Shown one piece after another: positions 12,060 through 57,758 of a stretch of 64,000 bases of DNA. How positions within the stretch are numbered: the stretch's first letter is position 1; each line of letters begins with the position of its first letter. The notes below the pieces were generated by a model, which ran no database searches, was not told the DNA's origin, and worked only from the letters and a program-made list of their open reading frames with translations. Source of the DNA: Raillietiella orientalis (Eukaryota); NCBI GenBank assembly GCA_036172245.1, contig JAYWIR010000008.1:186001-250000 (forward strand). Reading direction: 5' to 3'. A program made the position numbers and the translations under genes.

Positions 12060-12647
12060 CCTTTTTTATTTTTAGCCTTTTTTGGGTTGGCCAAGTGCTG
12101 AAGAACCGCTCGCCACCTCGGAAGGGGGGGAGGGGCTCATGGAGGTCTTCAGTGCTGTCCACGCCACCCCCGAGGGTGCTCATCACTCTTCAAGCTATAG
12201 GGGTAGACCCTGGGAGGGGACCACCCTATGAATCCAGGGAAGCTCCGGAGGAAGGAGTCCGTTCCTCTCTTACTCTTGGAAGGGAAGGAATTGCGAAGGG
12301 AAAGCCCCTCTCCCTTATTCTTTCTGGAGGGACCTCTAGAGAGGGTCACTTTTCGTTTTCTCTCCGGAGGGAACTCGGAAAGGATCCGCTCCTTTGCTTT
12401 CTTCCTCCTCTGAAGGCGACCCCGAAGGGAGCTCCCCAATTTCCCTGAAAGGTGCTCCCCGAAGGGAGCGGCGCTCTTCTTAACACTCTGGAGAGGCGAC
12501 CCCGAAGGGAACCGGTGCTCCTTGATTCCCGGGAGGTTGAACCAGAAGCTCAACTTCCAATCCCGGTCGGTCAACGGGGGCGTCCGGGAAGCCTACAGGC
12601 CAACGACCAGCACCATCCTGCGGGAGGAAATCGAAAACTTGCGACAT
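12060..12647 (-). mobile_element. SINE body (rod-structured family)
   Basis: Homologous to 55400-56050. Includes the perfect GCTCCC-TTCG-GGGAGC hairpin (+ strand 12454-12469) and an A-rich end. Confidence 0.85.
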
Positions 12648-14388
12648 TTGTCACCCGGATATGCCGGGGCACTTATTATTAAAAAAATTTTTTACAAAAA
12701 TTCCATAATAAAGTCGTCATAAACGTTTGTTACGTGGTAGAATACTTGGTTCTACCACGCCCTGGAGACTTGACATAAACCGTTACGCAGACCGGTGAGG
12801 TCCTCTCCAGCGGAGAAGAGGAAGGGAAAAAACAAAACAAAAATAAACAAAAAGAATTGAAAAGGAAGGGAAAATGCTTTTTCGGGAAAAGGGGGGGGAG
12901 CAGGGAATGGATCACTGTTCTCCTGGATTGGTCCTCTGCATCCTGTTCAGAATGCTGACAAGTGCTGCTCTGTCATTATTCCGGTAGGACCAGATTGACG
13001 CGGTCTCCAGAAAGATCGTCATCCAGTGGATGGCGTCCTTGCTATTTTGCCTTATTTTGGCGTTCCACTTTGCCATGATTCCGAGAACATACCAGAGGAC
13101 TGCTAGAGAGACAGCGGGGGGTGGGGCATCACTCATGAAGAGGCGCCGGAAAATGCCTTTAGAGTCGCCTACTGGAATATTCGGGATCAACGAGAGCCGA
13201 TCGCAAAGTTAACGAAGGGCGACGCAGTCTATTAGGAGATGTGGGAAGGTTTCTCTTTCGCCGCACTCTGCACAGCGGGCATCCACACTCGCTAGTGTCC
13301 AGTGCGAGAGGCGTGCTCTGCATAGGATGCATGAATGCAGGAATAGCAATGACGTCTCTTGCCACTTCATGGGAAGGGTGCCACTGTTCCAATATTCTGG
13401 GAGCCACTTCACCTCCTCCGGCTGTATTCCGAGCAGCTCGCCCCAGATCATGAGTTCTTTAGACGCGACACTCGGGGTCGCAGCGTCCACTAGCTGCCGC
13501 GTTGTCCACGCCCTCGTTACTTTTTTCCTGCCTCCAATGAAACGGGACACTTCCCACGATGCTCGTTCGTTTCTGTCTCTAGCATTCCTGAGGTAGGACA
13601 GCACGGGAGCAAGGGGGATGAAGGAGGACCACAGCAATTTGAGTGGGTTGTTTACCATCCCTCGCAGGGGTTGTCGAGTGTAAGCGCCTCGTCGGAGGCA
13701 GGCAAATTCCACCTTGCTCGAGCCGCCGATTTTTCCCCATGCGGAAACTGACTCCTGAAGCCAGGAAGTGCAGTTCGCGGGGAGGCAGGAGATCCACGTA
13801 TTCTCCTTCACCAGGGCAACCATCTGGCGCAGCTGATGGCCACAATGCCTCAGGCTGCGTTCGTACGCCACGAGGATCGAAGACAATCCTGCGCAGCCGA
13901 TCGCTCTGCTGGCGAGGGGGCGTGCAGGTTCGCACCAGGGCGTTGTCCAGAACTTCGCCGCAAGGGCGAGTCTTTGAAATTGGAGCTGACGCTCCACGCG
14001 CTCTATCGAAAGGAGGCCCAATCCACCGTCCCTGAGTGGAGTCTTTCAATAGAACACGGGATCTCCCTGTGCTCCAAAGGGCTTTTCTCAAGAGACCTCG
14101 GTCCGTTTTTTGATGATGGGTGAAGCGGGGCAAACAAAAAGTAGGGGGCGAAGGAAGGGGACCGCGAACGCATTCCACACTGTGGCCCGTTCCTGCAAGT
14201 GAAACTTGCCGTTCCGGAACGGGCCGATCTCCATCTCCACCTTTTGGAGACGGTCAGACCAGACTTCTGCTCGCAGAAGTCCCCCAACGGAACGCCACTG
14301 TACTTGATGTACCTGCCCTGGGGAACCCCAAGCGGATCCAGTCCGGCCGTCCGGCCCACGCCGCCCCAATTGGAACTACTGACGAACT
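12648..14388 (-). mobile_element. 5'-truncated L1/Tx1-like LINE (RT thumb + zf-RVT + 3' UTR), decayed
   Basis: YIKYSGVPLG (KYLG-like), WSDRLQKV...ERATVWN and CAECGERETFPHLLIDCVAL (zf-RVT), split by frameshifts; hairpin-bearing 3' end. Confidence 0.85.
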
Positions 14389-14503
14389 ACCCACGGCGTA
14401 ACCTCCCATTCTCGGCGTCCATCCTTCCCCGGGAGGGGTTCGAACCCGCGACGCTTGGCACAACGCACAGAAACCTCAGCCACGAGGCCGTTAACGCGGG
14501 GTC
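14389..14503 (-). mobile_element. SINE tRNA head, separated from its body (12060-12647) by a LINE insertion
   Basis: GTCGCGGGTTCGAACCC...GGGGAAGGATGGACGCC matches the heads of intact copies. Confidence 0.8.
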
Positions 14504-17500
14504 GTAGTAGTGGTAGTGGTGAAAAGCGACCGTGGTAGCTGGAAGGGCTCCCAAGACAGCAAGAAATGAAACAGATCCTTCGAGCCCTTGTTGCGTCCCC
14601 AAAGTTACCCTTGCTTCCCCTTCTTCCTCCGAACCCGGCGTCTCAAGCACCATTCGGGAGGAATCCAAAGCCCTCCACAGGCGGTCCGTCGCTCCTTGGT
14701 TCGGAAGAATGTCGGATTTTCCTTCCAGGGCTGCCAGGACCCAACTGACCTTCTCCCCCACCCCACCCCACTCTACCCCAATCAGTCGATCAGTTCTCCT
14801 CAGCTCGACCTGCTAAAGCCTCCGTGCCTGACCCCCCCCCTCCCCACCAGAACAGGCAGGGTCGAGAAACATTTTTGAATTGGAGAGCAGGACACCGCTG
14901 TGTTGACAACTGCCTGTGTCTCTTTGGTGCCGTTGATGGAGGAAATAGCTGCACGTTCAAGGCTGAGGGTTCGCGCAAGAAGGGACTGAACTGTTCAAAA
15001 AGCCAAAAGTACGATTTCTGTTTCTCTATTAATGATAATAATAATAATAACGATTGCAACAGAAACGGTGCTTAGTGATAACTGAGGCTACAGCAGCAGC
15101 GGTAGCCGTTGCTGCCTCGGCAGTTGCGAGAAGTCTGTTCGACGATCACATGGGTGCAAGAGACGGCAGCAACCACGTCGGCAACCGCGCCACTGGACGC
15201 CGATCGATCTCCGAAGACTCGAAATGTGTCCCTTTTTTCTTCTTTCCTTGTTTTGGAATTTGCGAAGGCAGTTCTATCATCGGCAGTTCCATCTTCTTTG
15301 CTCCTTCCTCCCTGGCTCCTCATCCTTTCTAATTCCCAGACTGGGACGCTCGGCACCTGTTGGCAGCGTACCTGATGTGTTTGTCAATCGCCTGGCTTCG
15401 TCTTGTAACGTGACCGATCGATGGTTGATGAAGGCGCCGTGCTGTCGTTTTCTTGTAAACTCAGCAGGCGCAGCCATTGGTCTAGCTGCGCCTGTTTGAA
15501 CTCAGGAGCTTCGCAGCCGTCTTTACAGGTGGTAGCAGCCGATCTTCGAGTTGCATCGGTTCGTTTGCAAGCAGAGGCTGCGGTCAGCCGGGAAGCTGTC
15601 GTCCAAACGAAATCCCATTCCCTGCTGACTCTTCTTATCCCGATTGACTGCTAGGATGGCGGTACTCGGGACGCGTGTCTCTGAAACGTGCCAAAACGCG
15701 ACGCATCCGCCGTAACTTCGCAGCAAGTGCATCCCCGGCTGCCATGTGCACACGCTGGCAGAAGATGTTCCATCCCAGCCCAATTGCTTTCCTGCACCGG
15801 CAACGAGCGCTCGCGACTGCCATGCTTCGTCGGTTCCCCAGTTGACTCATGTTGATATCGAAAGGGTAGATGGTGATGACCCCTTGCCTTCTGCAGAGGC
15901 ATGTGACCATCTCGGCGCCGCGGTTGCGTCATGCATGCAGCGTCAAGGTTCCCAACGCGAACGCCGCTGGTGTTTCAGTGCTGCCCAGCAACGCGAAAAT
16001 CCCCACCAGTTTTGAGACGACGGTCGTCGTTGACAGGGAGGTGCTCTCGTCTGCGCCCCACTTGGCACTCCGATCCACTGTGGATGACTCGACCATTTCC
16101 CGACGGACGGGTAATGGAGCCACGGCTCTTGGAAGACAGCTCAGAGTGGTTGGAGGGATGCCACTGAGGACTCTGTTTTGCTAAGAGTAGCGCACATGCA
16201 AGAACGGTGCCGGTGGCTCCTTCTACGAGTGGTCAGAATTTTGAGCATCAAATAGGAAAAACATTGGGATCAGTCGTTTATTGTATTGCTTTAGTTTAAA
16301 AGCAGGCTATGTGCTGCCTTCTATTTTAGCTCGAGACGCCTCCATCAAATACCTAAAATATACGTACGTAATGGATTCGAAACTGGAGAAATCGAATAAA
16401 AGAACCAAGGGATTTCTTAAGCGTCAGCTCCCACTGTCATGGCAACCTATATAGGCATTCATGTGTTACAGTTGGTATATACATATATATATATTTTTTC
16501 AGGAGATTATTCTACATCGCTTGGCAAACGGAATCACGTCAATTGTACGGTACTTGTGAAAAGTAGGTTATGTGAAATAATATGCTCGAACAAAATGCTC
16601 CCCGTCTCCTGGACGTGATGGAAACAAATTACGATTTAATTTCATTTCCTCGGAGCTTCGACCTCGCATCTTTCTTGATTACCCTGAAATTTCCAGCAGT
16701 ATCTTTAGAAATCGGAAGAAAACGATGAATATCGAACTGCAGAAATCCCGACAGAAGAGTGGAGGGGAAGAGGGGAGGATGAATCGCAGCTGGCATCCAT
16801 CATCTACACCTCTGTCTATTAAATGAAACGGATGGCGGCCATTTCAAATAAGCCGAGGCTTCTACGATGAAGCAAATGGAAGCGAGGAGGAGTCATCCGT
16901 TTCGTGAGTTCCTGTATCCGGAAATAGCGGAAATTTGAGGACAGAAAGCTGGAATGATTTTCCCGAATCCTTCCAGCACTAGATGTGGATCGGTGGTTGA
17001 CAACAACTCGATCCTGAGCCGCTGGCCGTGTCATCGCTTACCGGAAGGTGCAAGGCAGAAACTCTTTTCGGACGGAAGTCGTTTGGAACCAAGGACAGCT
17101 CTTTCACTCCAAAGTAGGCCCGAGCGATGTCCTTTCCCTGCTGGAAAACGCATCCGTCTACACAGTTAGTGCACATGCTCTGTTTTGTTTTTCATTTTTC
17201 TTCTTCTTCTGTATGTACGCTTATTTTGAGCGCTGCTTTCCCTTGCTGAGCATCGAAAAGCGTGGGAGATCAAAATACCTGACCAGAATGTTTTTGTCAA
17301 CGCTCATGACCAGGATTCTTCCGAAGATGATCTCACCTCCTCGAGCGTCTTAGGCAACCTCCGCTGCCCGGAAAAGCAGCACATCGGCTAAGAAAAATAT
17401 CTCAGTTGCGATAAGGTGAAACTTTCGATCTCTGATTTCGATCTTCCATTGCTGGGTGGCAGTTTTTCTTTTTTTTTCTTCCTCGTGTGAGAGAATCACA

Positions 17501-25491: not shown

Positions 25492-28006
25492 CAAGAAGGA
25501 GCAGCACTCGAAGAACGTACCGAAGAACGCCATCCCGAACGAACGGCGGCAGCCACACCAAGAGCGAACCGCAGGACGGACCAACTCTTTGACGGAGCAG
25601 CACGGACGAACCGCCAACTTTGCTCCCTTTTCCGTACTAAGGAGGGAGATCGGCGAATGGACTGATTCCGCAACCAGCGGTTACGGACTCCGACGTCCCG
25701 TGACGGCCAGACGAATCGACAGCCTCGTTCGCATTCACGAAGGCAACCCGCACGGGGTAATAGCCCTCGAGGGGGGAGCACAAGCGGAAGAGCTGCTCCG
25801 TATCCTGCCACGCACCGCGCGCGCTTCCAAGGGCATCCAGGGGTCGCAATCCAGCATCTCGCTTCCCTCCGGTGCCGATTCCAGGGTGTTCGGAAAAGCG
25901 ACACGGAGAGGCGGAGACCCGGGTCGCAAGGGCAGACGCCGCGAAGCGTGTCGATGACCACCAGCACGCGAAAAGATCCGTAGTGGGACGTGAGTTCCTG
26001 CTAGGACCGGCAGCTCGAGGGAACGCGCCTGCTCCAGACCCGTCCCGGGAACACGGGCAGTGGGGACACGCAAGAGGGAAACAAAAGCAAAGAAAGCAGC
26101 GCAGCTGGGAACTGCTGCTTTTCGGGAAACCTCGGCGATGGACCCTGCTCGAACCAGTGTATACTGGTATGCATTGGCATACACCGGCGGTGAAGTCCTT
26201 TGCGCGGGGAGTCGCAGCAGCCATCAGTCGACGCGTGGACCACCACCCACGAAGAGCTTGTTCCTTCTTTCCTGCAGCCCTGCAGGTGACGTCTCGCTGC
26301 TCGGGAAACCATGGAGGTCGGTAGCCTCCATGGTTTCGACCTCGGCCGGACCGCCCCGGGAAGACCGGGTTTGGCGCTGCAGGGCGAACGAACGGCGCTC
26401 GTCCCGGCCCCAGCCACGCTCTCCGCTCCCTCATCGCGCCGAGTGCCCTTGCCTGCGGTGGCCGCGCTCGGCTGCCTACTCATCGCCGCCACTGCTGCGC
26501 GGAGACGCTGGGGTGGAGAAGGCGCCCGCCGCCTAGCAACCCGCCTCCTGCGAATCCCGGCGAGCTGCACCCTCCTTGCCTCCCCCATCCCGAACCATCG
26601 CCCTCGTTTCATCTTCTTCTTGTCTTCCCCACTCCGTCCCCGCCATTGCAGATATCTCGCCAGCTCCCGGAGGGAGCCGGCAGACCCTGCACGTTCGTCT
26701 CCTCTTGCGGCACCCCTGCGTGACCGGGTGGAAGAAGCACGGCACTCGTCCCGACGAGGACTCGTCGGCAGGGCCGGAAGGACAGCGACAGCCGGCCGCC
26801 CGCACGCTTCGCCTGCTTCCGCGCCACAGCGAGCCGCGAGCAGTCGTTGCGGTGCCGGCATGCGAAGACGGGTCGCCGAGCGTGGCGCGAACCGAAAGTC
26901 GCCGCGAAGCGGCAGGGGCCACGTCAGGGAAGGAATGCGGGTGGCCGAGCTCACGGCGTCCGCCGGTGGCGCACTGGGAACGGGGAGGGATGGGTCAGCG
27001 CGCTTCGAGGATCGCGCCAAGAGGCCGAGGTGATGCGCGAGGGTGCGACGGACAAGATCTCCCAACCGTCCCTGCTGGAGGGAAAACGGAGCGAAAGAGT
27101 TCCTCTGCTGCTCGCGATGGGAGCGCCCGGTGGTGGCCATGTCTTCCGTGAGCTGCCCGGGAACACGGGAGCGAAGACGACGGGCAGGCCCGGTGTAGCG
27201 CGGGGGGTTCCTTCCGCGCCGTAAGAGTCCTGCGGCATACACGCGCTTGTCGTTCCGCTTGGAAACGGGAAAAGTGAGGCGTCTCTTTTTGTCTTTCGCC
27301 GAACCGGAAGCCTCGAGCAATGCTGGAGCCTAAGCTCTCGTTCTGTCGCCTGCGAAAGATGCATCATCTTGCGGTTTTTTGTCTACGGGAATGCGGCGGA
27401 AATGGGTGGGCTCCCCACCCATCCCGCTTCGTTACGGTGCGCCAGCAAGTTGAAATCGACCCACAGCGGCGCGCGGATCCCACCTAGCGCGTGGCACGCG
27501 TGGACTGTTGCGCGTCGTGCGAGGCAGCGGGGATCGGTGATGATCTGCTGGTGTTCGGTGTACGGACGGTCGTGGTCGTCCTCATGCTGAGCCGAAACGA
27601 AGGAACCTCACCGGATGCGGATCCCAAAAGATTTCTCTCCCGAACCCGTCTGACCCCTACCCCTCCCGGGCGTCGGTTTTGCTTGGAAACGGGATGGAAG
27701 ATCCGCGAAAAGCTAGAGGGCATCGGGACCTGCGAATGCCGTTTGGAACTTCCAAACTCCCTTCCCGCCTTTCGTGTCCGGGTGTTTCTTGGCGGGAGGA
27801 AGGGAGACCGTTCGCGCACGTGCAATCTCTGCCGTCGTTGGACGGCGGACCCGAGGGGTTTTGCGTGCACGTACACGATCGTGCACGACACCGAGCTTGT
27901 ACGTCGACGAGGGATCGAACGGGTGCTCGCTGGAGCAGTCGCAAGCAGGAGATGCGGGGACGGGCGGGCGGGATGTCGGGTGTCGGGTGGAACAAGTCGA
28001 GGTCAA
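25492..28006 (+). repeat. 2515-bp inverted duplication, arm A
   Basis: Reverse complement of 50173-52687. Paired ORFs map with a constant coordinate sum of 78179 (no indels) and have identical translations. Confidence 0.97.
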
Positions 28007-28009
28007 CAC

Positions 28010-28770
28010 GTCCGGGTCTGTGGCCGTTTGGCTGCGATCTCTGTGCGTGGCGCCAGGAGTCGCGGGTTCGAATCCCACCAGGGGAAGGATCGACGCGGAG
28101 CAATGAAGGATGTGGATCATGGGTTTCCAGTCCACCCTTCCGCAGGATGACTTTGGCTGGTCCCCTGACTTCAGGTGAAGCAGTACTGGTGGAAGTCAGA
28201 ACCCCCAAATGTCACTATTGACTGGCCTGGATTGGAAATGGACCTCTGGAGGTCTTCCAGGAATCAAGGAGCTCCGGTTCCCTTCGGAGTTCCTCTCCTG
28301 ACGTGAAAATGGAGCCTTTCCTCTTCTTCGGGAGGGATCCTCCATCGAGCACCATTGAACTGGCTAATATCACCTCGGAGAGTTGATTCTCCAGTGTTGA
28401 AAGGGACTCAGCTCCCTTTGGGGAGCGCCCTTCACAGGAATTTGGAAGTATCTGTTCGGGTTGTCTTCAGAGGAGCCAACAAGGTAGTTGCGGGTTTCCT
28501 TTGAAGAAGAAATTCAGGAGCTGATCCTTTATGTTTTTTTTGCGGAGAAATGAAGATTAACCTCCTTCGGGGAGAATAAGGAAGAGACTCCCTTACCAAG
28601 CGTAAGATAGGAACGGACTCCTTCCTCTGGAGCCATCCTGGATCCATATGTTGATCCCTCCGGGGTTACCCCCTATAAAGTGAAGCTAAAGAGCTTCGTG
28701 ACCTCCTCCGCTCCCCTTAAGGAGGCGAAGGAGTCTCTTCCTCACCCGGCGACCCGAAAAAATGAAAACC
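28010..28770 (+). mobile_element. tRNA-derived SINE (rod-structured family), near full length
   Basis: A-box-like TGGCCGTTTGG (28021) and B box GGTTCGAATCC (about 28065), followed by the shared body and an A-rich 3' end. Confidence 0.85.
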
Positions 28771-33115: not shown

Positions 33116-34050
33116 CCACCTGGTTATGCCGGGACATTTATTACTTGGGTAATAAAAATACATGTTGTAGTAGAACCGTTGGTTCTACCACGTGACATGA
33201 ATATACCGAGGACCGATACGCAGGCCGGCGAGGTCCGCTCCGGCAGCGTGGGGGAAGAGAAAACAAAAACACAAAGCGGGGGGGGGGGAATTTTACACGG
33301 GGAGGGTGGAGACCAAGGAAGGGATGACGATACGCTTCCAGACGTCCTCTTCATCTTGTCCAGGATGCCGGCAAATTCCGACCGGATGTCCAGGTGGGGC
33401 CATCTCGAGGCGGTCTTCTGGAAGATTCGCTCCCAGTGGATGGCGTCCCTGACGCTTCGGCCTCTTATTCCTGCGTTCCAGGCTGCTATGATTCCGCGGA
33501 GACAGCGGAGGACTGCGAGGGACGCGGCTGACAGCAGCAGTGCGGCGCGCGCGAAGGGGCGTCTGAAAATGTCCCTGGGACTGCGCGCCAGGATTCCCCA
33601 AAGGCCGGAGGGCATCACAGTCCACCAGCAGATGCTGGAGGGTCTCCTTCTTCTCGCAACTGTCGTACTCTGAGCGTACACGCTCCCCCGTGTCCAGTGA
33701 TGAAGGCGCGCTTTGCACGGGATGCCTTCGTGTGCCACCAGCAGCGCCAACATCTGACACTTGAGAGGGAAGTTGCCTCTGTTCCAGCACTCTGGGGGGA
33801 GCTTCGCCCCCTCCGAAGGAATGCCGGACCGCTCTCTCCAGCGTAGAATTCCGTGGGGTGGGACACTCGGGATCACAGCGTCCGTCACTTCCCGATTGGT
33901 CCACGTCCCCAAAAGGCTTCTTTTGCTGCAATGCAGCAAGTCACTTTCCACCTTGCTGGGATCAGGCTGTCCCTTGCGTCCCTTAGGGAGGGTAGCACTG
34001 GGGCAAGGGCAACAGGGAGTGATGGAAATCCCTTAGGGTTCTGCTCCCCT
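33116..34050 (-). mobile_element. 5'-truncated L1/Tx1-like LINE tail
   Basis: LVAHEGIPCKARLHHW...CEKKETLQHLLVDCDAL (zf-RVT); same 3' hairpins as the other copies. Confidence 0.85.
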
Positions 34051-34054
34051 GTTT

Positions 34055-34545
34055 GGTTTTTTCTTGGTTTCCAAGGAGTGCTGAAGAACCGTTCGCCTCC
34101 TCAGGGGTTGGAGGTCTCGAAACTCTTTAACTCTGTCCACGCCACCCCGGAGGGTGCGTGTCACCCCTTCAAGGTATAGCGGGTAACCCAGAGCGACCAC
34201 GCTATGAGTCCAGGAAGGCTCAGGAGGAAGAAGTCCATTCCTCTCTTACTCTTGGGGACGAACCCCGAAGGGAAAGCCCCTCTTCCTCATTCTCTCCGGA
34301 GGGGCCGGCCACTCTACGTTTCCTCTCTGAACCCGGAAAGGATCCGCTCCTGAAATTCCTTCTCCGGAGGGACCCCTCGGAAAGGATCCGCTCCCTGTTT
34401 CCTCTCCCTCCGATGAGGACCCCGAAGGGAAATGCTTCCCTATTTTCTCTGAAGGGCGCTTCCCGAAGGGAGCGGAAGCGCGCTTCTTGACACGCCAGAG
34501 AGGCGACCCCCTGAGAGGAATGTCCAAGCAGCTCCATGGTACACG
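34055..34545 (-). mobile_element. SINE body fragment (rod-structured family), headless
   Basis: Homologous to 12060-12500, with several CCCGAAGGG motifs (cUUCGg on the sense strand). Confidence 0.8.
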
Positions 34546-38929: not shown

Positions 38930-39303
38930 GGGAAATCCAGGAAAGCTCCGGAAGAAGGCGTCCGTCCCTCTTACGCTTGGAAAGGAACCCGTAACCTCGT
39001 CGTTTCCGGAGGGATTCCCCGGAAAAGATCCGCTCCTTGTTTTTCTCCCCCGAAGAGAAACCCGAAGGGCCGCTCCCCGAAGGGAGACCGCTCACTGCTT
39101 CACACTCTGGAGAGGCAACCAATCCCATGGAACGCTATGGAGGGTCTCCCCCCTTTGGGGAGGGGAGGGAACGGCTTCATTTTCACAACCGGAGGGAAAG
39201 ATTGAAGGGAACCGCCTCCTTGGTTCCTGGAAGGACCTCGGAGGGTCAACTTCCGATCCCGGCCAGTCAACGGGACATTGGGCTTCCAGTTTCCACCAGT
39301 GTC
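38930..39303 (-). mobile_element. SINE body fragment; its head lies at 40422-40490 beyond a LINE insertion
   Basis: Minus strand ACTGGTGGAA...TTGACTGGCCGGGATCGGAA aligns to 28185-28240. Confidence 0.75.
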
Positions 39304-39304
39304 G

Positions 39305-40421
39305 AACGCGGTCTCATCCAATGCGGACTGCACCTGTGGCAGGTGACCATGCTGGCGAGGAAAAACAGATGGATCTCGTGCCTCCCTGCGAACGGTAGCG
39401 CCTGGCTGCAGGAAACAAGTGGGCGAGGATCCAGGACCCAAGCGCGGAACAGGTGTGACGTTTCCTGTACGCGCGCAACAACAACTGCACGCTCCGGGAG
39501 ATCCTGGAAGATCCCTCGAAGAGTGTGTGGACGAGCAAAACCTCCCTCGCCGCCGCGCTGACCTCCCTTAGGGAACACGTGGACAGCAGCCTTACGGCTA
39601 GATGGGAGGTTACTGTGGAAACCTCCGGAAGGAGGAAGGAACTGGGCGATGCTCCGACCCCGAGTGCTCGACCTCGCAGACTTTTGCGCTGGGGCGTGCT
39701 AGTAGATATTCCGGAGGAAGACCTGCAGCCGCCCCCGGTGCCCATCCTCGACCCCGCCCATTACCCTCACCTTCCCCTCAAAGTGACAACAGTCGGCGTT
39801 GATGCTGCTGCATTGGGGCCTCCCGTGCAACGCCCACCGACACCATTGGGTGGTGAGCCCCAACTGCAGCAGATGCGTAGGAGAGTTCCTCCCGCACCTG
39901 CTCTTGGATTGCGTTGCCCTCCGACTTCTATGGGAATGCTTTGCCGCGTCCCTGCGGAACCCCGAGGACAATTCCAGAGACGTTTTAAAGCTCCTCCTTC
40001 ACGCGGGCCGCATCCCTAGCAGCACTCTGCTGCCTGCGCGGGATCGTGGCTGCATGGAGCAACTTCAGAAGAGACCAGAACGACAGGGACGCCGTATATT
40101 TTGCTGTCCTTTTTCCCCCAAGATGACCCCATCTGGGAACAGCAAAACGGAGCTTGTCGCCATCCTTACAGGAATTCTGAGACCCTCCAGCACGCTGTGA
40201 TCCCTTCCCGAACCCACACCCTTTCTTTTTTGTATTTTTGCTTTTATTGTTCTTTTTGTTTGTATTCCCTTCCCTTGTGCTGCCGAGGCAATCCCTCTGG
40301 TCTGAGTGCCAGATTCCCCAAAGGTTCCTTCCCATAGTTATAAGTAACGTGGAAGGATCAAACGTCCAACCATAGATATGTACGGTTTCTTAAATAAACG
40401 CCCCGGAGTGACCGGTGCCAA
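39305..40421 (+). mobile_element. 5'-truncated L1/Tx1-like LINE tail
   Basis: KNRWISCLPAN...LLHWGLPC...CSRCVGEFLPHLLLDCVAL; AATAAA at 40393 and a terminal CCGG/CCGG hairpin. Confidence 0.85.
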
Positions 40422-40490
40422 CCTACCCCATTTGTCGACGTCGATTCCTCCCAGGATGGGGTTCAAACCCGCAACGCTTGGGGACACGGC
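40422..40490 (-). mobile_element. SINE tRNA head fragment
   Basis: CAAGCGTTGCGGGTTTGAACCCC...GGAATCGACGTC aligns to the other heads. Confidence 0.7.
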
Positions 40491-43239: not shown

Positions 43240-43690
43240 GCTATGGACTCACATATGCGTTTGGCAAATGTTTTTACTTTGTACATGCGAAATAAATTAA
43301 CGCTATCCATGTTTGAGACGCAATATACACTTGCGTTCTTATAATTGCCTTAGCAACGACAGTAAACAAAATTCTATTTCTGCCAGCTAATTATCGTCGG
43401 CTTCTCAGGGAGGTGCCTCTGAAAAAACGAGTAGCCTAATATTCTAGTTTTGTCGCATAAAATTTATTGTGTTGTACCACACTCAATTGAATTTATTGAA
43501 ATTATGATTTTTAAATAAATAATAAAGGTTTGGGAAAAATGAAAACATTTTTTTCGAAGTAGTGTAAATAAATGATTATAATAGTGACTTTCATCAGCAC
43601 TTTATAAAGTCAGTCGGTACCTCGATGGAACGCGCGGTACGCGGGAAAGCGTGTCGTCCAGAGGTCGCAACTGCGACTCGCGTGCCTCCA
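43240..43690 (+). repeat. Dispersed repeat (uninterrupted copy), paralogue of 52985-53166 + 54649-54905
   Basis: Colinear similarity ending GAGGTCGCAACTGCGACTCGCGTGCC in both copies. Confidence 0.9.
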
Positions 43691-46299: not shown

Positions 46300-46975
46300 C
46301 TGCGATTCGCCGATTGCCGAAGAACCGTCCGCCACCTTGAGGGGGATTCGCGAAGCTCTTGAAGGCTGTCTACGCCACCCCCGAAGGTGCGTGTTACCCT
46401 TCCAGCTATGGGGTCAACCCCGGAGGCACCACCCCATGAACCCAGGAAGCGCTCCGGAGGGAGTCCGTTCCTCTTGCGCTTGGGAGAGGACCCTGTGGTC
46501 GTCTTAAGGGACCCCCTGGTTTCTATGAGCCGCTCCTGATTTATTCTCCAAAGAGAACCAGGAAAGAATCCGCTCCCTGTTTCCTCCTCTGAAGAGCACC
46601 CCGAAGGAAAGCTTCCCGATTTCCTCGGGAGGGCGCTTCTGACACTCTGGATGGACGATCCTCCGAAGAGGGTACCGGCCAGATCCATGTTGCGCGATAG
46701 AGGGTCCGCACAAGACAGAGGGACCGCTCCATTTTCACAATCGGAGGGCGGAACCCCGAAGGACCTATCGATTCCCGGAAGGGTGCATCCGGGGGTTTCC
46801 TCGAGTGCCGCTACACCTGAAGCCCGTGTTCGCAACCGGCGTCATCTTGAGGGAAAACGGGAATCCTACGACGCACCCACTTCTCTGGTGTCGATCCTTC
46901 CTCGGGCGAGATTCGAACCCGCGACACCTGGCGTCGCGCACGCGGGGGCTGCGGCCGCACGGCCGGCAACGCAGT
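46300..46975 (-). mobile_element. tRNA-derived SINE (rod-structured family)
   Basis: Minus-strand head GACGCCAGGTGTCGCGGGTTCGAATCT plus the shared body. Confidence 0.85.
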
Positions 46976-47869
46976 AGCAGCTTGAGGCTACTTGGGAAAC
47001 GCGACTACAGGCCGGTGCCACCGGAACGAGAGCATCTGTCCTGCCACCGCCGAATCAGGAGAGTCACGTCGTCTGCACGCCGTGGAGGGGAAGAGGGGAG
47101 GGGGAAAGCGACATTCAAGTCATGATGATGATCTCGAGATGATCTCGCTGCATCCGTTCTGACGCATCCTCGCACGGTGCTTGCATCATGCAGCTTTCCG
47201 TCACACATCCGGTTCCCCGAAGGATGGGCACGGACTGATGTGAAACTTCCGCACGCTCAGGGGGTTCGCTGTTTGCGGGTTGTTTCAGGGTTCCTCCACC
47301 CCCCCCCCCCCCCACCTCCTTTTCGAAGTCTTTTCGCAAATGCAAGCGCTTCCTCAACCTTCTGTGACGCAGTGACTTCTCCTCAGTGATGCCATTAACC
47401 TTTTTTTCCCCTTAGCTCCGCGCTAATCTTTCGCCGCGCACACTGCCATCTTCCATCGACCGTAGGAACGAACCCCTCGCCGGACAGCGTGTTTCCCTTC
47501 GCTCCGCGCTTCGCCTCGCTTGCGCGCACTTCACCCGAGCTCTCGCGATGGCCGCATGCCGCTCGCCCTTCCGCTGCGCCTGCGCCGTGGTCTCCTTTTC
47601 GCGCTTCCGTTCGAGCCGGCCCAAGAGGCCCTCGACGGACATCTTCCCCTGAGTCGACCCACGGAAGCGGCTATTCCAGCTGCGCGCTCCCGGAACGAAG
47701 CCCCCTCCCCTCACCTCGTTGGAAGTCACCAGCGGATTTCCCCGCCCAGCAGGTTGCTGCGTCCTCCGGACGAAGGGGCTTGATCTCGCTCCACTTCCTC
47801 CCCTTCGAGGCCCCCTTGCGCGCATGCTGCGGGCCGCACCCGATGAAAGGTGCCTCTTCCGGAGGAGCT

Positions 47870-48235
47870 ATGGCAGTGAGGACTTCGCCGGAGGGGTCTC
47901 CTCCATCCTGAAGGGCGCTCCCCGAAGGTAGCTGCACGCTCCTGAGAAATCGGGAAGCGTCCCATAGGGAAGCCTTTCAGAGGAGGAGGAAACAAGGAGC
48001 GTCTTTTTTTTCCGGGTTCCCTTCTGAGAAGAAACAATGGAGCACCCCCCCCCCCCCCCCCCACAAACCGGGGGTCCTTCCGGAGAGAATGAGGAAGAGG
48101 TTCCTTTCGGGGTTTGCCTACCAAGTGTAGGAGGAACGGAATCCTCTCTCCGGAGTCTTCCTGGATTCACAGAGCGGTTCCCCTCTGGGGTACCTCCCAT
48201 GGCTTGAGGAGTAACATACCCTCGGATGGCGTGGA
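47870..48235 (+). mobile_element. SINE body fragment (rod-structured family)
   Basis: GGAACGGAATCCT...CCTGGATTC...GGATGGCGTGGA homologous to the 3' arm of the family. Confidence 0.75.
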
Positions 48236-48239
48236 GAGC

Positions 48240-48770
48240 CGAGGTGCGTTTTGAGGGGAGCGATTGGAGGCAGTCGACCGGCGAGGTGGCAGACAAAAGC
48301 TGATGTGTGCTTGGACCACGGTGCAGCTGACCGACTCTGAGACACCGAGTGCCCTCCCACGAGAACCACGACTCTGGGGCGAGCTGCTCGGTATTCCTGG
48401 CGAAGACCTGGAGTGTGCACCGGTGTTCGCGGAGAGCAGCGCCCTCCCCCTGAAGCGAATGGGGTCGGCACTTCTGCAGCCATTCCACTGGGGTCGCCCC
48501 TGCAATACCCACCGGCACCACTGGACGTCAGGGAGGGCGAGCCCGGACTGCTGCAGGTGAGGGGAACACAAGTCCCTCCCTTCCGCACCTGCTCGTGGAC
48601 TGTGTTGCCCTCCGGCTCCCATGGGATCGTTTCAGGACGACCTCCGAGATCCCTGTTGGCACCCTCAGGAAGGTTTTCAAGCTCCTCTTTGTGCGAGTGA
48701 GGCCCTGCCTCCAGCCGCAGTCCCAGCAGCCCTTTGCTGCATCTGTGGAGTCGTGGAGGCCTGAAGCGAA
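48240..48770 (+). mobile_element. L1/Tx1-like LINE tail fragment
   Basis: AWTTVQL...WGELLGIP...HWGRPC...PHLLVDCVAL. Confidence 0.8.
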
Positions 48771-49020
48771 AGACCCCGGAGGGTCGACTCCTAAATCCCG
48801 GTCACCCATCGGGGGCATTCGGTTTTCAGCAGCTTCTACATTCGGGACCTGCCGCACCCGAATAGAGGCAGACTAGCGTCATTTTGCGGGGGGACTCGAA
48901 CCCACGACTCACCTATTCATTCCCCTGGTGTCGATGCTTCTCCGGGAGGGACTCGAACTTGCGGCGCGCGGTCCTGCCGGGCGCCGAGACCGCAGCCGCG
49001 CGTCTTCCGACGCGTCCTCC
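48770..49020 (-). mobile_element. SINE head plus start of body
   Basis: Two GTTCGAGTCC units followed by CCCCGCAAAATGACGCT...GACCGGGATT. Confidence 0.75.
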
Positions 49021-54648: not shown

Positions 54649-55353
54649 CCTAATATTATAGTTGTGCCGTATATAATTTATTATGTTGTACCACGCTCAA
54701 ATGAATTTATTGAAATTATGATTTTTAAATAAATAATAAACGGTTTGGGAAAAATGAAGACATTTTATTCAATGTGGTGTAAATAAAGGATTATAATAGT
54801 GACTTTCATCAGCATTTTATAAAGTCAGTCGGTACCTCGATGGAGCGCGGGGTACGCGGGAAAACGTGCCGTCCAGAGGTCGCAACTGCGACTCGCGTGC
54901 CGCCAATCTGATGAGCCCCGCACCTAAAGGGTTAAGCTGATGAGAACAGATTTTATTTAGTAATTTGCTTACATTATATACAGCGATAATTTGGATCACT
55001 GCTGGATCTCATTATTTCTCGCTAACGGCTTCTTCGTTTTGCATGGATTTGATGAGAGACTTTCTTCTTCTGCAGCCACTTCGTAAGCGCGTCATTTGAT
55101 GACATCGTCCAGAGGATACCCTGATCGGTGTGTCCCATAGATAATACCTCTGCTGTGCTGCATGCATGAGGCCACCGTAAGATGCCTCATTTTTTCCGCA
55201 AACGGCTTCGGGACACGCAACTCGCGCATCATTCGATCGTTCCATGAGTCTGTGGACCTCCCCCCCACTTTGGTTCGCCTCAGCAGTGCGTGAGCCACCA
55301 GAGAGGTCATTGCACTGAATCGGTTGCTAAACGTTTCCTCGAATTCGTTCGAC

Positions 55354-56058
55354 CCGGGTTTGAATCCCCACGGGAAGGATCGGCTCCAAGAACGAGGGGT
55401 GCGTCGTGGGTTCGAGTTTTCCCCGCAAGATGGCGCTGGTTGGCCCACGGGCTTCTGGTGCAGCGGCACTGGCGGAAGCCGGAAACTCCCGGATGCCCCC
55501 GATTAGTGTCCGGGATTGGAAGTTCCTTTCCAGAATCAAGGAGTCCTTCGGGGTTCCCTCTCCAGTTGCGGAAATGGAGCTTTCCCCTTCCTCCATCCCT
55601 CAGGGGGTGACCTCCCCCGTGTACTATGGAACTAGTTGACATCCCCCTCGGGGATTCTCTCCGGAGTGCACGCTGCTCCCTTCGGGAAGAGTCCTTTAGG
55701 GGTTCTTTTCTGAGGTGGGAACAGGGAGCCGTTGGGGTTCCATCGGGAGAAGAAATTCCAGGAACGTTTCCTTTCCGGATTCCCTCCGGAGAGAATGAGG
55801 AAGAGGTGGTTCCCTTCTAAGATAACCGGGACGAGGGGTCCCTTGAGGGTTCCCTGACAAGCGCGAGAGGAGCACGACTCCTTCCTCCGGAATCTTTCTG
55901 GATTCATGGGGTGGTCCCTCCGGAGTTGACCCCTAACTAGAAGAGTCACACACACCTTCGGGGGTGGCATAGACAGAATTAAAGAGCTTAGTGACTCCCC
56001 TCCTCCCCTAAGGAGGTCAGAGGTTCTTCTGCACTTGGCGAACCAAAAAAAAAAAAAG
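55354..56058 (+). mobile_element. tRNA-derived SINE (rod-structured family), 5'-clipped, with A run
   Basis: GGTTTGAATCC, then a second GGGTTCGAG unit, the shared body, and GAACC followed by a 13-nt A run. Confidence 0.85.
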
Positions 56059-56891: not shown

Positions 56892-57029
56892 CTGTTTGGA
56901 GACAAACCACCGTTGGTTAAAACTACGACAAACACCCGGGTTGCTTGATGCATGTGCGGGGGAACTGGAGACAGAGAGGTTCTCGTTGACTCGCCCGCCT
57001 GCCATTGCGGCAGTGACCATTGGCATCTA

Positions 57030-57758
57030 CCCGAGCTGGCGTCCGCGTGTCTGCGGCCTCCGCGCGCGCGGCGCCAGGCGTCGCGGGTTCGAATCCTGCC
57101 TGGGGAAGGATCGACGCCGAGAGATAGAGGATGTCTCGCGGGTTTCGAGTCCCCCCCCCTCCCCCCCCCGCAAGATGATGCTGGCTGGCCCATTCGGGTG
57201 CGGCATCGGTGAGTCGAACCCCCGGATGCTCCCGTCGATAGGTCAGGATCGGAAATTGACCTTTCGGAGTTGACCCTCCAGGACATCGAGGAGTCCTTCC
57301 GGGTTCCCCCGCCGGTTGCGAAAGTGGAGCCATCCATCTCGTGCCATGGAATTGGTGGATCGACACCCCTCCAGAGGGTGAAGAAACGGGTTGTTCCCTT
57401 CGGGGAGTGACCATTCAGAGAAAGTTGGGAAGCTCCCCTTCGAGATTCTCTTCAGAGGAGGGAACAGGGAGCAGGTCCTTTCCGGGGGTTCTCTTCGGAG
57501 GAGAAAAAATGGAGTGGATGAACAAGGAAGGATATGGAAGAAATGGTTCTCTTCGAGGTTTCCTCCCGAGCGTAATAGGAACGGATTCCTTCCTCTGGAG
57601 CCCCTCCTGGATTCATAAAGTGGTCCCCTCCCGGGGCACCCCCTAACCTTAGGAGTCAGGCGCACTTTCGAGTGGCGTGGACGGTATCAAACAGCTTCGT
57701 GAGCTCCCCCCCCTTCCCCTAAGGATGCGGATGGTTCTTGCGCACTTCGCATCTCGAA
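57030..57758 (+). mobile_element. tRNA-derived SINE (rod-structured family) in stomatin intron
   Basis: GGCGCCAGGCGTCGCGGGTTCGAATCC head; body homologous to 28010-28770 and 55354-56058. Confidence 0.85.

Follow-up and report, generated by a model that had tools for sequence, protein, structure and literature searches.

A probable dead copy of an old SINE-type retroposon with a UUCG-bearing repeat body, and no support for a selected RNA rod

The window, by which we mean the whole 64-kb stretch of DNA analyzed here, is 54% G+C, with no depletion of CpG (observed/expected ratio of 0.98) and a depletion of TpA (0.56). Its 2-kb blocks swing between 39% and 65% G+C. A Pfam search of 182 ORFs from the window found zf-RVT, the zinc-binding domain at the C terminus of LINE reverse transcriptases, alone above threshold, together with a sub-threshold match to TMEM72 and no recognisable host gene. 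The window looks like part of a large, repeat-rich eukaryotic genome that is unmethylated or weakly methylated.

A repeat family is spread over this DNA. We built a family profile of 812 positions from the longer copies, and an nhmmer search of the window with this profile found nine copies or fragments on both strands, the number that the preliminary description had put at about nine, which together take up 5,251 nt, equal to 8.2% of the 64 kb. The copy in question (c55) lies at positions 55354 to 56057 on the plus strand, matches positions 76 to 810 of the 812 in the profile (E value of 4e-194), and is truncated at its 5' end. On the same strand, it carries a first B box, GGTTTGAATCC, at 55357 to 55367 and a second B-box-like motif, GGTTCGAGTT, at 55409 to 55418 and ends in an A13 tail at 56045 to 56057. 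Three copies are full length. One of these (c28; 27988 to 28768, plus strand; profile 2 to 810, E value of 7e-202) has both the head, as seen in the head alignment, and an A-rich tail; another (c57; 57005 to 57758, plus strand) was recovered in full by the profile search; and the third (c46; 46301 to 46999, minus strand; profile 2 to 800, E value of 1e-179) has a decayed tail. On the minus strand, c12 is in two pieces, with body and tail at 12071 to 12646 (profile 126 to 811) and a head piece, recognized by both the profile (21 to 136) and the head alignment, at 14388 to 14504; a LINE fragment splits the head from the body. The remaining copies are c34 (34053 to 34536, minus strand; profile 304 to 810), which is 5'-truncated with an A-rich tail; c39 (38934 to 39303, minus strand; profile 189 to 653), a body fragment to which a head fragment at 40427 to 40488 (minus strand; profile 60 to 120) probably belongs, with a plus-strand LINE fragment between head and body; c47 (47889 to 48238, plus strand; profile 369 to 727), a body fragment followed by a LINE ORF2 fragment at 48285 to 48615; and c48 (48660 to 49013, minus strand; profile 28 to 377), which consists of the head and the 5' part of the body.

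Identity to the majority consensus is 82 to 89% across the copies and falls to 76% in c48, the most diverged of them, and we therefore regard the family as old. No convincing target-site duplication was seen around any of the six copies examined, which is unsurprising in a family of this age. The profile search showed c55 and c34 to have a truncated 5' end and an intact 3' end. None of the 10 ORFs overlapping or adjoining the copies contained a Pfam domain, and pattern scans of metagenomes with one conserved word from the body and one from the head gave no matches for either.

Full-length copies comprise a 5' head of ∼75 nt, a body of about 0.6 to 0.7 kb, and an A-rich tail. The head ends in a T-arm-like hairpin containing the B box GGTTCGAATCC, and homology begins ∼65 nt upstream of this box. 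A second T-arm-like box, with the consensus GTCGTGGGTTCGAGTCC, is found ∼55 nt past the first and is evidently a duplication of it. The 3' end of the body reads ...GGCGAACC and runs into the A-rich tail, which was seen in c55, c28, c12, and c34, as A13 in c55 and in a decayed state elsewhere. The heads of c28, c57, c46, and c12 resemble one another (z scores of 2.6 to 7.1) and have their B box in a constant position. The 70 nt preceding c55 show no relation to the other heads (z of about 0). Since c55 starts at the B box and what precedes it is unrelated, this copy lacks the 5' half of the head and is not itself tRNA headed. The preliminary description had called c55 a tRNA-headed SINE with C(UUCG)G hairpins; the assignment to a SINE-type retroposon family and the C(UUCG)G motifs on the sense strand hold, and the tRNA head has to be withdrawn for this copy.

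The likeness of the head to a tRNA was assessed with ARAGORN and Rfam. ARAGORN found no tRNA in the window at default settings; when relaxed, it made 74 calls in 64 kb at -ps80, a non-specific result, and three at -ps90, one of them the head of c57 (57028 to 57108, plus strand), which is tRNA-like to this program at relaxed settings only. The Rfam tRNA model matched only the 18-nt T-arm of c57 (57082 to 57099, plus strand; model positions 46 to 63, 11.3 bits, E value of 7.5) and gave no match in c46, and the Rfam search produced no match to 5S or 7SL RNA. A B-box motif was present in all seven head regions scanned, two of them degenerate, whereas an A-box-like motif was present in two of the seven. 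A tRNA origin of the head would thus rest on little. Another of the three -ps90 calls was a tRNA-Ser-like fold at 55452 to 55523, within the body of c55; it may be due to chance, or it may be what is left of an additional tRNA-like unit of a multimeric head.

In SINEBase (PMC3531059), a SINE is defined as a short (<1 kb), interspersed, non-tandem repeat; the head is required to share at least 60% identity with tRNA, 5S, or 7SL RNA across 60 nt or more, and A and B boxes are treated as an indication only of Pol III transcription. Full-length copies of 699 to 781 nt, scattered over the window, agree with this description in being short, interspersed, and non-tandem. The commonest type of SINE, with 41% of the SINEBase families, has a Pol III-type head, a body whose origin is not known, and a tail (PMC3531059), and our family resembles it in its head, body, and tail, in the B box and T-arm at the 5' end, in being interspersed and non-coding, and in its A tail, 5' truncations, and nearby LINE fragments. 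It differs from the commonest SINEs in having a head that, beyond the T-arm, has diverged too far for recognition by the Rfam tRNA model, a duplicate of the T-arm box, and, within the body, ∼41-nt units in a degenerate array, described below. At ∼0.7 to 0.8 kb, it also exceeds the 75 to 662 nt spanned by the 175 families of SINEBase in 2012 (PMC3531059). Our literature searches found nothing specific to such an element, although searches made without the name of the organism cannot show a family to be undescribed.

Fragments of LINE ORF2 C termini were located by tblastn at at least six places in the window, of which three lie within a SINE copy or directly beside one. The fragment in c12 (12647 to 14387, minus strand) is L1-like and 5'-truncated, with the ORF2 C-terminal domain zf-RVT at 13212 to 14045 on the minus strand (Pfam PF13966, E value of 6.3e-07), the end of the ORF near 12913, and an A/T-rich 3' end. 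It is a probable example of the partner type of LINE. The ESM Atlas matches to its ORF were zf-RVT clusters from Mucoromycota, Arthropoda, and Chlorophyta, and no relatives of near or longer length were found in the homologous-protein search. As the head of c12 (profile 21 to 136) lies beyond this LINE and the match to the body picks up again at position 126 of the profile, we conclude that the LINE inserted into the SINE. The overlapping profile coordinates, 126 to 136, suggest a putative target-site duplication at the junction. Counting all contacts, L1-like fragments lie inside or against SINE copies at four places, at 12647 to 14387 (minus) in c12, at ∼39259 to 40114 (plus) in c39, at 48285 to 48615 (plus) at c47, and at 34007 to 33212 (minus) at c34, which suggests a target preference for the A/T-rich spots of the SINE or a hot spot of nesting.

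The body of c12 begins ∼270 nt downstream of the stop of a LINE ORF2 on the same strand, an arrangement that would also be seen if the element were the 3' UTR of the neighboring LINE. Against this, the head of c12 (14504 to 14388) lies beyond the LINE fragment, another LINE 3' end (34007 to 33212) has no SINE body after it, and a BLASTN comparison of the 3' part of the LINE with the SINE copies found no shared sequence. We rejected an origin of the SINE body from a LINE 3' UTR, because in c12 a LINE divides the SINE in two. A DNA transposon of the MITE type, with a fold produced by its inverted repeats, would agree with the equal folding of both strands reported below and would be at odds with the A tails, the 5' truncations, and the absence of terminal inverted repeats from all three full-length copies, in which the first 60 nt matched the reverse complement of the last 60 no better than shuffled sequences did. 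We regard both of these origins as extremely improbable.

The SINE and the LINE both end A-rich, which fits mobilization of the L1 type, dependent on the tail. Source copies would have been transcribed, probably by RNA polymerase III through the internal boxes, and an L1-like LINE with a zf-RVT ORF2 and an A/T-rich 3' end would have reverse-transcribed the RNA at its A tail by target-primed reverse transcription, a process that would also yield 5'-truncated copies such as c55. Each copy would then inherit from the master sequence whatever helices can be drawn in it.

The body is G+C-rich and repeats the words GGAG, GGAAG, CTCC, and TTCC and the palindromes TCCWGGA and CTCCGGAG. Because of these recurring complementary words and palindromes, any copy allows many nested helices to be picked out by eye. 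Autocorrelation of 4-mers over eight copies gave peaks at offsets of 40 to 44 (z scores of 7 to 8), 77 to 82, and 115 to 125, and exact internal direct repeats of 17 nt and 14 nt are present in c12 and c34, respectively. The ∼41-nt periodicity is visible in the k-mer autocorrelation only, as Tandem Repeats Finder reported a 12-nt repeat of 1.9 copies in c55 only and none in c12 or c34.

The 5,073 nt of copies contain 22 CTTCGG motifs in the sense orientation and a single one in antisense, so that the C(UUCG)G hairpin motifs previously noticed on the strand of the B box reflect a real enrichment; the hairpin given as an example, GCTCCCTTCGGGGAGC (GCTCCC-TTCG-GGGAGC), is found in c12 at 12454 to 12469 on the minus strand. 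In the majority consensus, there are five sense and no antisense occurrences where 0.52 would be expected, and none of 1,000 dinucleotide shuffles reached five. The spacings between these consensus motifs are 37, 53, 53, and 114 nt. Purine-rich and pyrimidine-rich words flank the mini-palindromes, and the indels between copies are roughly unit sized and fall at the UUCG motifs. As read from its sequence, the central body consists of ∼41-nt units in a degenerate tandem array, with a CCYTTCGGRG mini-palindrome (CCYUUCGGRG in RNA) in every unit. Such an array would explain the recurrence of the UUCG motif by duplication rather than by independent selection and would bring with it both a strand-symmetric local foldability and many alternative long-range pairings.

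SVA (SINE-VNTR-Alu) elements of hominoids are composite retroposons that have no tRNA-like head and are held to be Pol II transcripts. Our family shares with them a non-autonomous nature, a probable mobilization of the L1 type, an A tail, an internal G+C-rich array with units of a few tens of nt, and unit-sized indels. The family could be a composite mobilized by a LINE rather than a genuine Pol III SINE; one form of this would be an SVA-like element that carries an internal VNTR and is transcribed by Pol II. In that case, the T-arm boxes would be incidental relics. The ∼41-nt array with its unit-sized indels and the restriction of the tRNA likeness to the T-arm would suit this origin, as would the A tail and the 5' truncation, which are compatible with any L1-mobilized RNA, and the length of ∼0.7 to 0.8 kb, which is above the SINEBase maximum of 662 nt for 2012 (PMC3531059). 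On the other side, six of the seven heads scanned have two B-box-grade motifs at conserved 5' positions, the homology among copies reaches ∼65 nt beyond the first B box on its upstream side, the extent anticipated for a head of tRNA size, and the sense strand of the consensus has no T4 run, a weak argument since by our own estimate only ∼0.8 would be expected by chance. Unlike SVA, the family has a T-arm head, and a relation in sequence to SVA is not expected. We think a composite of this kind unlikely and continue to treat the family as a SINE-type retroposon.

The preliminary description had further proposed that the body folds end to end into a rod maintained by selection at the RNA level, on the basis of five nested helices between the 5' and 3' parts of c55 and of pair-preserving differences in other copies. 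As features of the sequence, all five helices are present: H1 (55437 to 55445 with 56037 to 56045) has 8 of 9 pairs, H2 (55458 to 55463 with 56029 to 56034) has 6 of 6, H3 (55493 to 55502 with 55958 to 55970) has 10 of 10 with a 3-nt bulge, H4 (55529 to 55535 with 55896 to 55902) has 7 of 7, and H5 (55538 to 55545 with 55876 to 55883) has 8 of 8. The variants cited from other copies are likewise real: TCCAGGA/TCCTGGA lies at 28256 to 28262 and 28636 to 28642, the 12-kb copy has ACGC/GCGT, and the 57-kb copy has GAGGAGTC/GATTCCTT, which includes two G.U pairs. H5 is kept at 8 of 8 pairs in four of the six copies that have both arms, and H4 is kept in six of six copies after a 1-nt realignment by eye. 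Individual hairpins can also be compensated, as in the change from CACC..GGTG to CACT..AGTG in c57. All this, along with the sense-specific CTTCGG motif, is what would be expected if the source RNA were a large structured ncRNA, a rod or a multi-domain fold capped by cUUCGg loops, whose selection at the RNA level is reflected in the pair-preserving differences. Two of the details point the other way: the covariation in H3 consists of two single transitions off a consensus U.G pair, and the 5' arm of H5 overlaps a local GGAGUCC-UUCG-GGGUUCC hairpin, so that the rod and this hairpin are mutually exclusive.

Folding energies were compared with those of dinucleotide shuffles (20 and 60 for c55; 40 per strand for the consensus). 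In c55, the z score of the minimum free energy (MFE) was -0.59 with 20 shuffles and +0.05 with 60 on the sense strand and +0.02 and +0.11, respectively, on the antisense strand. The sense z scores of c46 and c57 were -0.14 and -1.02, and the consensus gave +0.27 in sense and -0.27 in antisense. The exception was c28, which folds better than its shuffles (z of -2.49), as a structured RNA would, and better still on the antisense strand (-3.96). When the three domains predicted by RNAalifold (see below) were folded in the individual copies, 12 of 15 sense z scores lay between -1.1 and +1.7; the negative values belonged to c28 and the central domain of c55, where the antisense strand was equally or more negative. 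In the predicted ensemble of c55, the helices of the rod are nearly missing, with pair probabilities of at most 0.056 for H1 and at most 0.002 for H2 to H5, and their bases pair elsewhere in the MFE structure. The body, therefore, folds no better than chance in c55, c46, c57, and the consensus, and the folding is not specific to the sense strand, with z scores near zero on both strands in c55 and the consensus and lower on the antisense strand in c28.

Covariation among the copies gave a similar picture, with low power given five to nine old copies. RNAalifold predicted 14 pairs at -5.4 kcal/mol for nine sequences; for the five longest bodies, its consensus had 104 pairs, divided among three separate domains, an energy of -58.7 kcal/mol, a covariation term of +3.31, and none of the 5'-3' helices. 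No pair spanned more than 300 columns in the native alignment, compared with a mean of 14.5 such pairs in 55 column-shuffled alignments. Pairs with changes on both sides numbered 14 on the sense strand compared to 11.9 ± 3.2 in the shuffled alignments, 18 of 55 of which reached 14, and 10 on the antisense strand compared to 11.0 ± 3.4 in the 55 shuffles. Covariation among copies is thus at background, and no long-range consensus helix supports the rod. The RNAalifold energy was below that of the column shuffles on the sense strand (z of -2.7, with 1 of 55 as low), which favors a structured RNA, and further below on the antisense strand (z of -4.1). Some conserved local foldability exists, and it is stronger on the antisense strand.

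We also counted changes within fixed sets of pairs. For the 54 long-range pairs of the consensus MFE structure, pairing was kept in 30% of the changed cells compared with 35% in the null, and there were 8 pair-keeping double changes compared to 5.4 ± 2.2 (86 of 500 shuffles reached 8). All 231 pairs of that structure, with most of the signal from local pairs, gave 33 pair-keeping double changes compared to 18.9 ± 4.2 (2 of 500), an excess that would favor a structured RNA and that we discount because, for local pairs, the regional correlation of divergence is not preserved by the re-pairing null. The five quoted helices gave the strongest figures in favor of the rod: 5 double-change pairs compared to 2.3 ± 1.0 (8 of 500 shuffles reach 5), a covariation score of 0.040 compared to 0.030 (2 of 500), and 78.9% of cells paired compared to 35 to 54% in slid controls. 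We discount these as well, since the helices had been selected by hand for showing such changes and came from one of the very sequences compared, the 1-nt alignment offset in H4 accounts for one of the five double changes, and the H3 change starts from the U.G pair described above.

Genomic copies decay neutrally once they are inserted. Differences between the copies of an old burst therefore say little about selection on the source RNA. The preliminary description had itself named equal folding of the two strands and covariation at background as outcomes that would tell against its rod, and both were observed, leaving selection at the RNA level unsupported. We consider a selected, large structured source RNA quite unlikely, slightly more so than the composite origin discussed above. 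With a probability of about 0.78, the element at 55354 to 56057 is instead a dead copy, truncated at its 5' end, of a SINE-type retroposon of ∼0.7 to 0.8 kb that is old, non-coding, and non-autonomous and whose body contains no selected rod. The case illustrates that in G+C-rich, internally repetitive elements, nested helices can be traced by eye and a few "compensatory" changes encountered in the absence of a selected RNA structure, and such helices should be read with caution.

With viroids and viroid-like or retrozyme RNAs, the family has in common only the nested 5'-3' helices that can be drawn in one copy. It differs from them in having no thermodynamic excess, no ribozyme or Rfam match, and no long-range helix in the consensus and in being a linear genomic retroposon with an A tail. 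Rfam gave no match in the whole window at gathering thresholds, and in four sub-regions searched with E values up to 10, it returned noise and the T-arm only. No rRNA was among these matches, and the alternative of an rRNA expansion segment, raised in the preliminary description, finds no support in Rfam. A viroid-like, SRP-like, or ribozyme-bearing RNA is also unsupported, as is a dsRNA precursor.

A narrower proposal concerns the array itself. The central ∼41-nt units with their cUUCGg-type hairpins may have been functionally selected in the RNA of the master gene, to serve, for instance, as a scaffold resistant to nucleases or a multivalent platform that binds a protein of the partner LINE. 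We hold this to be a long shot, about on a par with the composite origin; if true, a selected hairpin array would be an undescribed type of SINE body and modestly interesting. Otherwise, the family adds a long, repeat-bearing retroposon headed by a T-arm, together with a probable L1-like partner, to a G+C-rich genome without CpG depletion, and its importance beyond repeat annotation is small.

Two further repeats were observed in the window. An inverted duplication of 2.5 kb, with arms at 25492 to 28006 and 52687 to 50173 that are 99.7% identical, ∼65% G+C, and ∼22 kb apart, ends in one arm at the 5' end of c28 and adjoins a LINE fragment in the other; its long ORFs are rich in Arg, Ala, and Pro, have no Pfam match, and seem to be spurious. 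A direct repeat of 257 bp, at 43435 to 43690 and 54649 to 54905, is 91.8% identical between its two copies and is neither SINE nor LINE.
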